The position numbers were made by a program. From a virus (Duplodnaviria > Heunggongvirae > Uroviricota > Caudoviricetes), in the IMG/VR virus record IMGVR_UViG_2634166457_000016, positions 1 to 4,873 of that record: a stretch of 4,873 bases of DNA; one strand, written 5' to 3'. Shown here in pieces: positions 1 through 4,873 of the stretch. The number at the start of each line of letters is the position of its first letter. The stretch's first letter is position 1.

Positions 1-3000
1 GCAGACCGCCACCAGCATACTGAAGCAGCGACACAAAAAATACTTGCGCCGCTGCCTCCACGCCCACCAGCAAAACCCGCCACAGGAAAAGACGGTGGTC
101 AGCATTGCCGTTGATCCGGAGTCACCGGCTCAGTATCTCCAGCGCCAGAAACCACAACGGGAAGAGATGCCTGTATACACGCGCTGGGTAAAAACGCAGA
201 AATGCATGACGTGCGGTAATCAGGCAGATGATCCGCATCACATCATTGGTCATGGACTGGGAGGAATGGGAACAAAGGCTGATGATTTGTTTGTTATTCC
301 GCTGTGTCGCAAATGCCATAACGAACTACACGCAGGAGTAAAAGATTTTGAAGACAAACACGGCAGCCAGTTGTTGTTGCTGATTCGTTTTTTAATGCAC
401 GCGAGAAATTCGGGTGTTTTGAAGTGGAAAGCATAAATGACTGAACGCATAGAATTTGTTTTGCCTTACCCGCCAACGGTGAACACTTACTGGCGTCGTC
501 GTGGCAGCACATATTTTGTATCAAAAGCCGGGGAGCGTTATCGCCGGGCAGTGGCGCTTATTGTTCGCCAGCAGCGGCTGAAATTAAGCCTGTCCGGAAG
601 GTTGGCAATAAAAATTATTGCAGAACCACCGGATAAGCGCCGCCGTGACCTGGACAATATTCTGAAAGCGCCGCTGGATGCGCTGACGCATGCGGGGTTG
701 CTAATGGACGATGAGCAGTTTGATGAAATCAATATCGTTCGTGGTCAGCCAGTATCTGGTGGACGTCTGGGGGTGAAGATTTACCCCATAATGCTTGAAG
801 GGCAGGTCAAAAAATGAAACTGGAAGATTTACCGAAATACTACTCCCCAAAATCCCCCGGCCTGACCGATGCGTCCGCCTCGACATCAAAAGATGCGCTG
901 AGTATCACTGATGTGATGGCCGCGCAGGGCATGACACAAAATCGGGCTGAGATGGGTTTTTCTGCGTTCCTTGGGAAAATGGGCATTAGTATGAATGACA
1001 GAGAGCGGGCAACAGAATTGCTGACAGAATATGCACTCAGTCGGTGTGATCGCGTGGCGGCGTTAAGAAAACTCCCGGCAGAAATAAAACCGGCAGTGAT
1101 GCGTATTATGGCTTCGTATGCGTTTGAAGATTATGCCCGTAGCGCGGCGAGCAAAAAACAGTGCCCCTGCTGTCACGGAAAAAAATTTATTGAAAGCGAG
1201 GTTTTTACAAACAAGATCCAGTATCCGGATGGTAAGCCGCCGGTATGGGCAAAGTGTACGAAAGGTGTGTATCCGTCTTACTGGGAAGAATGGAAAAAAG
1301 TCAGGGAGGTGGTAAAAGTTGCCTGTCCGGAGTGTGGCGGAAAGGGTGAGGTTTCCACCGCCTGTAAGGATTGCCGTGGGCGTGGTGTCGCCATTCATCG
1401 TGAAGAGTCGGTAAAACGTGGTATGCCTGTTATCAGAGACTGCCAGCGTTGTGGTGGTCGTGGCTGTGAAAGACTACCATCAACGGAGGCATTTAATGCC
1501 ATATGCAAAGTGACGAGAGCTATCACGCTTGATACGTGGAAAAAATCAGTGAAACGCTTTTACGATACGTTGGTGGTTCGGTTTGACATTGAAGAGGCAT
1601 GGGCGGAGCGGCAGTTAAAGAGGGTAACGCGATAGTGTTGTTGATTTTTCCCGAATCTGTGGTAAATTTGCTCTAACGATGGGCGTTTTATGCCTGACGT
1701 TAGAAGATTTTTTACACCCCGCCGCCTGGCGGGTTTTTTATGACTGAAATCGCGTCAGTACAGTAAACGCGCTGGTGGCGGTGAATACCTGTCTTTCAGC
1801 TTGCTGGCTTTTTCGACAAGAGTTATTGGTGTGTCACGTTAACCGGAAAAGGGAAAAAGACATGCTAAAACAGCAGGATATGACAGAAACCGCCAGAGTA
1901 GTGTTTAATGAATTAAGCGTTACCGAACCGGCGACAGTCGGGGAGATAGCGCAGAATACTTACCTTTCACGCGAACGCTGCCAGTTAATACTGACCCAGC
2001 TGGTTATGGCGGGTCTGGCAGACTATCAGTTCGGTTGTTACAGACGCCTTCAGTCCTGAAGGCTTTTTTATTTGTGGTAAATGGGCGGCTGGTGGGTGTT
2101 AGCGGCACCTGTCAGTCCTTTGCTTATGTGTTGATGATAATTTACCTTTTGGGGCTATAATTGAACTAACCAATTGCTAATGAAAGTAAAATTATAATGG
2201 TTGTTGTCTGTTCAGTTATCATGGTTTGCTCCCCAATTAATATTTTTCTTGAAAAGGATACGTTGTCACTTAAGCCCGGCTCAGTCGTTCTGGCCACCAA
2301 ATGCATCAGGGCGCTTTTCCTTATGCATTATGGCAAAGTTAAAATTTTCGATATAAACCATTCCATAGTAAGTCAATATCTGGAAATTCAGCATAAGCTG
2401 ACAAGAACTCATCTGACTGACGTTCCGCTTTATCTGTCACTGGAACCCAACAACCCTGCGTTGGCTGAGGCTTTAATTACCAGCCAGAGATTTTCCGGAG
2501 ATACCACGGATATGTTTCTTATGATGGCATGCCTGTCGCTGTTTGAATCAGATGAACGGATATTATTATTTTTAAGTGGATGTTTATCCAGTATAAGTGC
2601 CAAAGTCAGGGCGATAATTCAGACAGATATATCAGCAAGCTGGACGCTTGGTGCGATTGCGTTACGCCTGCATATGAGTGAGAGTTTGTTAAAGATAAAA
2701 CTGAAAAATGAAGGGCACATGTTCAGTCGCTTGTTGCTGGAAGAGCGGATGCGTGTTGCTGTCAATATGTTATGTTCCCGGCATGGATATGGACAGGCTG
2801 TAGCAGAAAAATGCGGTTATTCAAGCTGGTCCTACTTTATTTCTGTATTTCACCGCTATTATGGCTTCCCGCCAGACAGATATGTATCCAGGCAAGGGCT
2901 TGATTATTGATTTTCATCTGATTATTATTTTTTGACCCGGCCCTTTAGCTCAGTGGTGAGAGCGAGCGACTCATAATCGCCAGGTCGCTGGTTCAAATCC

Positions 3001-4873
3001 AGCAAGGGCCACCATCACATACCGCCATTAGCTCATCAGGAAAGAGCGCCAGCTTTCGAAGCTGGTTGCGCGGAGTTCGGGTCCCCGAAGGCGGTCCATT
3101 ATCTGTATCCTGCGTTGTTAGCTCAGCCGGACAGAGCAATTGCCTTCTAAGCAATCGGTCACTGGTTCGAATCCAGTACAACGCGCCACACTTATTTTCC
3201 CTGGCTCGCTTTTGCGGGCCTTTTTTTTAAATGTCTCACAATTCAGGCGGTTGACTGTTGTCTGGTTTGCGGGGAGTTTGTTAAAAGAAACTGGCATGGT
3301 GAATCCCCCTGTGCGGAGGGGCAATCAGCGAGTAGGTATATGGGATAATCGCGGATTCAGGTGCTGGTACTGAATTCACCGGGAGGCACCCGGCACCATG
3401 CAATGGCACATAGCGCCACTCTCCAGCCCCTCTCCGGAGGGGCTTTCTTATGGACAAAAAAAGCCCGCGCAGGGAGACGCGGGCGGCAAGGAATAAACAA
3501 CAAAACGTGAAGTAATATTTCAGCTGGCGAATAATATCCGACAGTAATCACTCTGCGCAATAGCGCGGCCTTTTTCGTATTGCGGGCTGTTGTCTCTCTT
3601 CTGCCATTGTCCTGTAACTTCCGGACTTCAGCCCGCTCCTCATTTTACTCACAATATTATCCCGGCCGGGAGGATTCATGGCATTTAAACACTATGATGT
3701 TGTCAGGGCGGCGTCGCCGTCAGACCTTGCGGAAAAGCTGACACACAAACTGAAAGAGGGCTGGCAGCCATACGGCGGACCGGTTGCCATTACGCCGTAC
3801 ACACTGATGCAGGCGGTGGCTATTGAAGGAGAGCCACAGGTCGGCCCTTCATCTGAGCCGGATTGGTACTACGTCATCGTACTGGCCGGGCAGTCCAATG
3901 CCATGGCTTACGGTGAAGGGCTTCCGCTGCCGGATTCATACGATGCTCCGGATCCGCGCATTAAACAGCTGGCGCGCCGCAGTACAGTTACGCCGGGTGG
4001 GGCTGCCTGCAGATATAACGATATTATTCCGGCCGACCACTGCCTGCATGATGTGCAGGATATGAGTACGCTGAATCATCCGAAGGCAGACCTGAGCAAA
4101 GGGCAGTACGGCTGTGTCGGCCAGGGGTTACATATTGCCAAAAAACTGCTCCCGTATATCCCGAATAACGCGGGGATCCTGCTGGTACCATGCTGTCGTG
4201 GTGGTTCGGCATTTACCCAGGGCGCGGAGGGGACATTCAGTGCGGACACGGGGGCCAGCCAGGATTCGGCGCGCTGGGGTGTGGGTAAACCGTTATATCA
4301 GGACCTGATTGCGCGCACCAAAGCTGCATTACAGAAGAACCCGAAAAATGTGTTGCTGGCGGTGTGCTGGATGCAGGGAGAGTTTGACATGAGCGCCGCC
4401 ACCCACGCACAGCAACCTGCGCTGTTTACAGCCATGCTGACACAGTTTCGTGCTGACCTCTCCGTGTTTAACGCGCAGTGCCATGGTGGCAGTGCTGCAG
4501 ATGTGCCGTGGATTTGTGGTGACACGACGTATTACTGGAAAAATACCTACGGCACCCAGTACAACACCATTTACGGGGCGTACAAAAACAGGGAGAGTGA
4601 GGGCGTTTATTTTGTGCCCTTCATGACAGACGGTAACGGCGTCAATACCGCCACTAACGCGCCGGCAGAAGATCCGGATATTCCGGCATCAGGATATTAC
4701 GGTGCGGCATCGAGAACGAATGGAAACCAGGTATCATCAAACCGCCCGACACATTTCAGTTCATGGGCGCGCAGGAGCATTATTCCGGATCGTCTGGCAA
4801 CCGCTATTCTGAACGCAGCCGGGCGCACCTCAGCCTTCATCAGTGGTAAGGCACCGGAAATCAAACCCTCGCC

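Follow-up and report, generated by a model that had tools for sequence, protein, structure and literature searches.

The ileZ-argN-argO tRNA cluster beside a psrA allele is probably a general prophage module for AT-rich genes

Do the tRNA genes of a lambdoid prophage serve the cargo gene that lies beside them? The question is raised by a 4,873-nucleotide stretch of Caudoviricetes DNA (IMG/VR record IMGVR_UViG_2634166457_000016, positions 1 to 4,873; hereafter the window), in which three tRNA genes directly follow an AT-rich regulator gene. The original prediction held that this trio matches the rare codons of its neighbour and gives the phage its own decoding capacity for AT-rich cargo. All features described here lie on the + strand. 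The late antiterminator gene Q (814..1635, 273 aa; Pfam Antiterm PF03589, E = 1.8e-49) is followed by a putative PR'-like late promoter read directly from the sequence (1639..1669; TTGATT, 16 nt, TAAATT), which scored 8/12 matches, under the threshold of our promoter scan, and is also kept in locus L033, whose backbone carries no cargo cassette. A tR'-like intrinsic terminator was found by terminator scan directly 3' of Q (1718..1740; CCCGCCGCCTGGCGGG then TTTTTT). Beyond it lie a small TrmB-like ORF (1850..2059), whose homologous ORF is annotated as a TrmB family regulator in RefSeq/GenBank and which gave no match in a Pfam search, a terminator after that ORF (2046-2070, terminator scan), and a promoter-like site (2134..2161; ATGATA, 16 nt, TATAAT), the top promoter-scan match of the region at 10/12, which may serve the regulator gene that follows. 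Downstream of the tRNA genes, the 5' part of nanS-p (3678..4873; Pfam DUF1737 and SASA esterase) runs past the window end. The order Q/tR', trio, nanS-p is that of the lambdoid late region ahead of the stx, nanS-p and lysis genes and matches loci L001, L002 and L003; no stx gene was found downstream of the trio in the window.

The regulator gene (psr, 2197..2910) encodes a C-terminal AraC-type helix-turn-helix (Pfam HTH_18 and HTH_AraC), is 100% identical at the DNA level to its O157:H7 copies, and corresponds to ECs_1087 of Sakai Sp4. It belongs with PsrA, PsrB and PatE, AraC-like regulators of EHEC prophages, and by allele and position it is psrA, which is ecs1087 (PMC13502914). By inducing GadE and YhiF, PsrA and PsrB are reported to repress type III secretion, and acid resistance to be activated by PsrB and PatE (PMC10877973; PMC13502914); neither publication discusses tRNA neighbours or codon use. 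Annotated start sites differ, with RefSeq giving a 237-aa product and Sakai ECs_1087 starting at window position 2323, codon 43.

The presence of three tRNA genes (2939-3188) was borne out, as ARAGORN and Rfam supported all of them: anticodon CAU (ileZ, 2939..3014), UCG (argN, 3022..3098) and UCU (argO, 3112..3188) at 72.5, 42.9 and 70.1 bits, where the Rfam tRNA model has a gathering score of 29. ARAGORN labels the CAU gene tRNA-Met. This label was ruled out, and the Ile2 reading is correct, because the body of the tRNA resembles K-12 ileX (68/76 positions identical, the entire anticodon loop included; 54/77 for a provisional sequence of elongator metT) and RefSeq annotates identical copies as tRNA-Ile. 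The gene also contains the C4-G69 and C5-G68 pairs, which are TilS determinants. In argO the cloverleaf is clean; it shares its anticodon loop with host argU, yet only 56/77 positions are identical, and the stem differences from the K-12 gene are compensatory. To our knowledge, E. coli K-12 has no UCG tRNA-Arg counterpart of argN. The name ileZ-argN-argO was also correctly assigned, since Sakai Sp4 annotates ileZ1, argN1 and argO1 beside ECs_1087. The window trio has the same anticodons, order and spacing as the cluster of O157:H7 lambdoid prophages, copies of which lie in Sakai Sp4 and upstream of stx in Stx phages, and it likewise sits between Q/tR' and nanS-p. O157:H7 and other strains share the psr-tRNA stretch at 100% identity, and several strains share the 257-bp trio at the same level. 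Window positions 1716 to 4873 are 97.4% identical to Sakai Sp4, and apart from a left arm with a different Q allele there is no substantive difference between the two. The trio is thus the known cluster of lambda-like E. coli prophages, and the locus is an ordinary one that had already been annotated.

Codon usage was compared with a set of 79 O157:H7 core genes (26,406 codons), in which the five codons assigned to the trio (ATA, AGA, AGG, CGA and CGG) sum to 1.23%. Their rarity was confirmed, as they rank 1st, 2nd, 3rd, 5th and 7th rarest, CGG being only the 7th. The predicted count for psr was reproduced exactly (ATA 7, AGA 3, AGG 3, CGG 3; 16/237, 6.75%; binomial P = 6e-8 against the core value), with no CGA; by our arithmetic the Sakai start would give 15/195. 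ATA makes up 41% of the Ile codons of psr, and AGA or AGG 46% of its Arg codons. Q and nanS-p do contain several AGA and AGG codons as predicted (AGA 5 and AGG 2 in Q; AGA 2 and AGG 3 in the nanS-p fragment), and the five codons together reach 15/273 (5.5%) in the Q of the window and just 5/398 (1.26%) in the nanS-p fragment. Prophage and cargo genes use the tRNA-read codons at 3 to 5 times the core-gene frequency. The Sp4-like prophage as a whole has 3.62% against 1.23%, and stx2kA reaches 9.1% with 15 ATA. The rare-codon observation therefore stands, since cargo usage is above the host average. The word "trio" is weakened, however, because psr lacks CGA, CGG comes no higher than 7th in rarity, and the UCG tRNA is a structurally weakened allele.

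The enrichment extends well beyond the neighbour of the tRNAs. Other genes of the same prophage reach similar levels (int 6.2%, relE 9.5%, RusA 6.5%, Q 6.5%), as do genes of AT-rich islands for which no tRNA gene is listed in the retrieved regions (espX1 7.0%, waa genes 4.5-5.7%). AraC-like paralogues from phages or prophage regions that lack tRNA genes stand at 6.5-8.3%, equal to or above psr. At the level of whole phages, the five codons amount to 3.73% in 1H12, a lambdoid phage that lacks tRNA genes, and to 4.29% in the Sp4-like prophage, a single comparison. A published study saw no difference in codon adaptation between lambdoid phages that carry the three tRNAs and those that do not (P = 0.93; 6 carriers versus the rest of the set; PMC4631060). 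Codon enrichment was thus not linked to tRNA carriage, and because of these two results the trio cannot be tied to a greater codon demand in its carriers. The codon match between psr and the tRNAs is real but generic, and common to AT-rich acquired DNA.

The distribution of the cluster also separates it from psr. Of 5,426 complete E. coli genomes, 3,061 carry the trio, at 7,597 places in total and up to 13 in a single genome; psr accompanies it at 1,325 of these places or fewer (at most 17%). Among 56 IMG/VR loci the gene upstream of the trio is psr in 3, and is most commonly a DNA methyltransferase (27 loci) of ordinary codon use (3.55% for the five codons); other arrangements have the methyltransferase upstream or stx downstream. 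Locus L033 aligns to window positions 579-1741 and 2925-3200 but has 21 nt where the window has the intervening 1,183 bp, and GC content drops to 37-44% in this interval (1742..2924). In L033-type loci the tR'-like terminator lies directly upstream of the tRNA promoter. The alignment indicates that psr and the small TrmB-like ORF are an AT-rich, 1.18-kb cargo cassette inserted between tR' and the promoter of a pre-existing trio. The window as a whole is a mosaic, with a left arm like strain PRO_A (97%) and a right arm like Sakai Sp4, and variable cassettes switch exactly at tR' and at the trio. The adjacency of psr and the trio is accounted for by the junctions flanking the trio, which are insertion slots for cargo.

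These data bear on the reading closest to the original prediction, in which psr and the trio are a co-adapted pair and the phage carries the tRNAs specifically for translating its AT-rich neighbour. Wherever psr was found, a trio follows it directly: a query of the psr 3' half plus the trio found 7,597 places, the same number as the trio alone, and in 694 of 726 psr genomes a place spans 80% or more of this query. Co-transcription of psr and the tRNAs may also occur, as no strong terminator intervenes. GC-matched and regression controls lent this reading further support, in that, of 110 genes, psr shows the largest excess of ATA+AGA+AGG once GC content is taken into account (z about 3.1) and has 5.5% of these codons against 2.7% in GC-matched genes (P = 0.013). 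This excess is modest and post hoc, as it was tested after psr had been picked for its rare codons, and it is the sole support that remains. Against co-adaptation stand the small share of trios that have psr as a neighbour, both among complete genomes and in IMG/VR, the insertion of psr beside a trio already in place, and the paralogues without a nearby tRNA gene that are as rich in these codons as psr or richer. Other genes of the same prophage and the islands listing no tRNA gene are equally rich, 1H12 has similar usage, and psr lacks CGA, the codon for which the UCG tRNA would add most, while argN is probably impaired. On distribution, IMG/VR neighbours, paralogues, whole-phage comparison and cassette boundaries we therefore rejected a match specific to the neighbour, and consider co-adaptation of the pair unlikely. 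The decoding-capacity proposal survives in part: the tRNAs are real and their codons are enriched in prophage and cargo genes, but the pairing with psr is unsupported. Its appearance is explained by a shared insertion slot together with the general codon habits of AT-rich DNA.

The three tRNAs differ in how well they are maintained. Relative to intact alleles, argN of the window carries C32T, G52A, A58G (in the T loop) and T67A, which leave an A.C mismatch in the T stem (A52.C62) and an A.A mismatch in the acceptor stem (A6.A67); its Rfam score of 42.9 bits is 13 bits lower than the 56 of intact alleles, and it departs from the canonical tRNA form of intact cloverleaf stems and a T loop with A58. 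It is probably a weakened or decaying copy, and may be weakened rather than dead because it still lies above the Rfam and ARAGORN thresholds. Across loci the middle slot carries the anticodon UCG, UUU on a related scaffold or, in one locus, CCG. Most of its variants look damaged, with mismatched stems, a lost A58, deletions of about 11 nt, a swapped anticodon arm or, in the Lys-like form, C33, and many are not called as tRNAs. Fusion alleles of argN and argO reflect recombination within the cluster. In some IMG/VR loci ileZ occurs together with Lys, Thr and Gly tRNAs.

Mean pairwise difference across loci was 0.024 for argO, 0.18 for argN, 0.18-0.24 for the spacers and 0.003 for ileZ, whose near-invariance is partly made by the sample, since loci were chosen by an exact 15-nt match within ileZ and a filter of at least 90% identity. 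In independent contexts, ileZ and argO are about 8 to 65 times less divergent than argN and the adjacent spacers, and argO alleles show a compensatory T-stem change. This pattern suggests that selection acts on two of the three tRNAs, ileZ and argO. The signals around the genes are also kept. The predicted promoter of the tRNA operon (2900..2928; TTGATT, 17 nt, TATTAT; promoter scan), whose -35 element overlaps the end of psr, recurs at a fixed distance 5' of tRNA-Ile2 as TTGC(A/G)N or TTGATT, a 17-nt spacer and TATTAT in at least five unrelated upstream contexts, and a promoter-like TTGxxx-17 nt-TATTAT lies about 10 nt before tRNA-Ile2 in all contexts examined. The intrinsic terminator that ends the operon (3203..3228; terminator scan, GGCTCGCTTTTGCGGGCC then a T run) is invariant after argO in 4/4 aligned contexts. 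A primary transcription start of these tRNAs has been mapped in the Sakai Stx2a phage (PMC7547250).

Taken together, the data suggest that the trio is most probably a conserved backbone module supplementing Ile2 and Arg-UCU for AT-rich genes generally, and that psr became its neighbour by way of an insertion slot. The trio would form a self-contained transcription unit, in which a sigma-70 promoter of its own drives the three tRNA genes and an intrinsic terminator closes them off. This unit would open the Q-dependent late operon, directly after PR'/tR'. Its expression is expected to be low and constitutive in lysogens and far higher on induction through Q readthrough. To very small host pools, ileZ most likely adds tRNA-Ile2, predicted to read AUA after lysidine modification, and argO most likely adds tRNA-Arg(UCU), which would read AGA and AGG. 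The beneficiaries would be all heavy users of these codons, among them phage genes generally, the AT-rich acquired stxA, and psr. We infer that supplementation by the trio would measurably raise translation. For PsrA, a low-abundance regulator, tRNA supply is unlikely to be the limiting factor. Readthrough from psr into the tRNAs is possible because psr is inserted directly upstream with no strong terminator between. That psr transcripts enter the tRNAs and that PsrA translation tracks the number or induction of trio prophages, with consequences for GadE-mediated repression of type III secretion and for acid resistance, seems quite unlikely; if true, PsrA would provide a tRNA-dosage link from prophage load to virulence regulation.

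Three further readings set decoding aside in varying degree. The tRNA genes could matter mainly as DNA, as an anchor of about 250 bp, near-identical in many prophages, for homologous recombination in swaps of late-region modules and cargo, with decoding minor. The mosaic window with its cassette changes at tR' and the trio, the many copies per genome and the fusion alleles would fit such an anchor, but it leaves unexplained the intact ileZ and argO cloverleaves with their compensatory changes beside drifting argN and spacers, as well as the conserved promoter and terminator, and we give it little credence. Some other phages are known to carry tRNAs that escape tRNA-targeting defences, and the trio might similarly counter anticodon nucleases or tRNA-cleaving toxins by supplying replacements or decoys, the middle tRNA being engaged in an arms race; its changing anticodon and its evolution at roughly the rate of the spacers, between near-invariant neighbours, would suit this. 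Because most argN variants look damaged rather than retargeted, and the middle-tRNA variants were not seen to go together with any defence or toxin gene, we regard the arms race as very improbable. That the tRNA genes are neutral passengers without present function is hardly credible, given the constraint on ileZ and argO and a retained promoter with a mapped start, even though argN is decaying and the Sp4 prophage is defective, carrying IS insertions as well as frameshifts in its terminase and portal genes.

The preferred reading, a general supplement for AT-rich genes, can be set beside two known systems. Bailly-Bechet et al. in 2007 reportedly put forward a codon-compensation model for phage-borne tRNAs, such as those of T4. 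The window tRNAs fit such a model in that their codons are so much more frequent in the prophage than in core genes, but not in that a closely related phage type without tRNAs has the same usage. That the trio tRNAs remain unchanged in defective prophages suggests that the lysogen profits from them no less than the phage does. In SfI, Sf6, ST64T, PS3 and P21, tRNA-Asn and/or tRNA-Thr lie directly 3' of Q, and a codon-bias argument has been made for one of the two (PMC3636060); their genome position is that of the trio, but the tRNA species differ. If prophage tRNAs boost AT-rich genes, the 6 to 13 trio copies of EHEC would amount to a genome-wide booster, for instance of stxA and psrA. This idea is about 25 years old, and the window brings no new test of it. 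The rare-codon rationale is said to go back to the first description of the cluster, by Schmidt et al. in 1997, Plunkett et al. in 1999 and Hayashi et al. in 2001; a full-text literature search on ileZ, argN and argO found nothing relevant. Of possible interest are the contrast between an often broken argN evolving at a spacer-like rate and the near-invariant ileZ and argO, and the conservation of the trio's own promoter.

The window was also searched for the multicopy prophage sRNA HnrS by complementarity to the mazF 3' end; a provisional mazF probe gave no match within 3 mismatches. Between the trio and nanS-p, Rfam identified a full-length structured RNA of the STnc100 family at 3265..3455 (RF02076, 138 bits, E = 1.9e-31), and an RNA of this family was also found 3' of stx2kB in locus L001.

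The window is a late-regulatory region of a lambda-like prophage, with all features in + orientation. It opens with the 3' end of a DUF968 gene (to 436), followed by RusA (437-817), the antiterminator Q (814-1635), a PR'-like promoter recognized directly in the sequence, and a terminator resembling tR' (1718-1740). Beyond these lie a small TrmB-like ORF that has a terminator of its own (2046-2070), an AraC-type regulator gene (psr, 2197-2910; Pfam HTH_18 and HTH_AraC), three tRNA genes called by ARAGORN (2939-3014, 3022-3098, and 3112-3188), and a terminator at 3203-3228. A full-length Rfam match of 138 bits identified an STnc100 RNA at 3265-3455, between the tRNA terminator and nanS-p (DUF1737 and SASA), of which only the start is present.

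The anticodons of the three tRNAs are CAT, TCG, and TCT, and the genes score 72.5, 42.9, and 70.1 bits, respectively, against the Rfam tRNA model. The CAT tRNA matches E. coli K-12 ileX at 68 of 76 positions but elongator tRNA-Met at only 54 of 77, and identical copies are annotated in RefSeq as tRNA-Ile; because of this, the gene was assigned as tRNA-Ile2, bearing out the original prediction. That prediction also held that the trio is matched to the rare codons of the adjoining psr gene. Its codon counts for psr were exact (ATA 7, AGA 3, AGG 3, CGG 3, and CGA 0, or 16 of 237), and these five codons rank 1st, 2nd, 3rd, 5th, and 7th rarest, summing to 1.23%, in a host baseline of 79 annotated core genes from O157:H7 strain PV15-279 (26,406 codons). 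At 6.75%, their use in psr is ~5.5-fold the core-gene level (binomial P = 6e-8), with ATA accounting for 7 of 17 isoleucine codons versus 5% in core genes, and AGA plus AGG for 6 of 13 arginine codons versus 4%. Both the three tRNA genes and an excess of rare codons in psr over the host average are upheld by these data.

The psr region shares 100% DNA identity with O157:H7 genomes and is present in 726 of 5,426 complete E. coli genomes. Window positions 1716-4873 are 97.4% identical to a stretch of the Sakai prophage Sp4, where ECs_1087, an "AraC-family transcriptional regulator," is followed by ileZ1, argN1, and argO1. Since Sp4 names the same gene order, the arrangement of psr and the trio is already annotated, and recognition of the cluster as the ileZ-argN-argO element was correct. 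The rare-codon rationale for this element goes back to the earliest accounts of Stx phages and of the O157 genomes. ECs_1087 is psrA (PMC13502914). PsrA and PsrB are prophage regulators through which GadE and YhiF are induced and type III secretion is thereby repressed, and acid resistance is activated by PsrB and PatE (PMC10877973). The annotated psrA start differs between sources: RefSeq/PGAP gives a 237-aa product from 2197, and Sakai ECs_1087 begins at 2323 (codon 43, 195 aa). A promoter-like site at 2134-2161 ends just ~36 nt before 2197, and the start codon is uncertain between the two positions. In Sakai Sp4, psrA and the trio are followed, after ~4 kb, by the LEE activator gene pchA (8366-8680 of the Sp4 locus L133), and thus a single defective prophage carries both repressing and activating inputs to type III secretion.

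The five codons are frequent well beyond psr. In the Sp4-like prophage they make up 3.62% of codons across all genes and 6.2%, 6.5%, 6.5%, and 9.5% in int, RusA, Q, and relE. The AT-rich islands carrying espX1 (7.0%) and the waa genes (4.5-5.7%) list no tRNA gene in the fetched regions. AraC-like paralogues reach 8.2% in phage 1H12, which has no tRNA gene in 46.7 kb, and 6.5% in phage ev099, while ybcM of K-12 DLP12 stands at 8.3%. When ORFs are called by a single heuristic, overall use is 3.73% in the whole 1H12 genome versus 4.29% in the Sp4-like prophage, and in a published comparison codon adaptation was indistinguishable for lambdoid phages that carry or lack the three tRNAs (P = 0.93; PMC4631060). 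A codon match like that of psr is characteristic of AT-rich acquired genes in general. For ATA, AGA, and AGG combined, psr (5.5%) exceeds GC-matched genes (2.7%; P = 0.013) and is the top residual of 110 genes given GC content, although this GC-corrected excess is modest and psr was chosen beforehand for its rare codons.

Across the 5,426 complete genomes, 3,061 carry the 257-bp trio, at 7,597 places in total and as many as 13 in one genome, and psr occurs at 1,325. A joint query of the 3' half of psr plus the trio yielded exactly the 7,597 places already obtained with the trio by itself; each psr copy therefore adjoins a trio, and 17% of trios at most have psr. In 56 IMG/VR phage loci with sufficient upstream sequence, the trio is preceded by a DNA methyltransferase 27 times, by Q 14 times, and by psr 3 times. 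These methyltransferases use the five codons at 3.55% (1.71% for ATA, AGA, and AGG), and genes downstream of the trio range from 8.8% in stx2A-like genes down to ~2% in nanS-p.

An IMG/VR contig that shares the Q backbone of the window (L033) aligns to window positions 579-1741 and 2925-3200 and has 21 nt where the window has 1742-2924. Because this backbone aligns on both sides without it, the AT-rich region of the TrmB-like ORF and psr (GC 37-44%) is, on sequence grounds, a 1.18-kb cassette inserted between tR' and the -10 of the trio promoter. The adjacency of psr and the trio is a product of this cargo insertion slot. With psr confined to a minority of trios and brought there by cassette insertion, and with a tRNA-less phage about as rich in these codons, a tRNA match specific to the neighboring regulator is not supported; what holds of the original prediction is the known element and the codon counts.

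The window is itself mosaic, its left (1-1741) and right (1716-4873) arms resembling different strains. Strain PRO_A-1374 matches the left arm, which encodes DUF968, RusA, and a 273-aa Q, at 97% identity and carries a DNA methyltransferase at the psr position; Sp4, 97.4% identical to the right arm, has a different Q of 123 aa. Among the complete E. coli genome matches listed, no single place covers more than 84% of the window.

The 60 nt upstream of tRNA-Ile2 were compared across ~30 distinct IMG/VR contexts. A promoter-like site, TTGC(A/G)N or TTGATT separated by 17 nt from a TATTAT that lies ~10 nt ahead of the tRNA-Ile2 start, was found in every context sampled, whether methyltransferase, tR', psr, or others. 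In the window it lies at 2900-2928, and its distance to tRNA-Ile2 is fixed regardless of upstream sequence. From the -10 to the start of the tRNA, most contexts carry a GC-rich segment (CTGCTCCC or CTGCGCCC) reminiscent of the discriminator in promoters under stringent control; the psr context has TTTTTGACCC there. The trio is a self-contained operon nested within the late operon. It would be expressed in lysogens, would receive high-level read-through after Q action, and would supply extra decoding capacity for rare codons. This inferred capacity, the mechanism invoked by the original prediction, still accounts best for the whole cluster.

In 47 distinct sequences of the window's trio type, mean pairwise difference is 0.003 for ileZ, 0.024 for argO, and 0.18 for argN, with 0.18 and 0.24 for the two spacers. 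Thus argN diverges as fast as the spacers while ileZ and argO are nearly invariant; because sequences entered the sample through a 15-nt match within ileZ, ileZ conservation is overstated, but the contrast between argO and argN is unaffected. The argO T stem also carries a compensatory C-G to G-C change. From these patterns, purifying selection appears to act on ileZ and argO in defective prophages as well, consistent with an advantage for the lysogen. The window argN scores 42.9 bits versus 56 bits for intact alleles (loci L002 and L012), from which it departs at four sites: C32T in the anticodon loop, G52A in the T stem (an A.C mismatch), A58G in the T loop, and T67A in the acceptor stem (an A.A mismatch). 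As psr has no CGA codons and argN is structurally weakened, the trio of the window amounts, for psr, to ileZ and argO. Elsewhere (loci L009-L128), middle-slot variants include stem-breaking alleles of the kind seen in the window, replaced anticodon arms, ~11-nt deletions, argN-argO fusions, and, on a related scaffold, a Lys(UUU)-like form with C33; in one locus the slot is occupied by a tRNA with a CCG anticodon. Many of these variants are not called as tRNAs, and the variation of argN could be decay or diversification.

In phage phiSTEC1575-Stx2k (L001), an STnc100 element lies directly 3' of stx2kB (6787-6981, 64.9 bits), and stx is therefore located between the trio and the STnc100 RNA. The sRNA EcOnc42, possibly the same RNA, lies directly 3' of stx1AB (PMC7547250). 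The span from the PR'-like promoter to the tR' terminator (1639-1740) predicts a short transcript of ~70 nt, far below the 258 nt of the StxS precursor known from Sakai Stx phages, and the short RNA made with this Q type may therefore be a different one.
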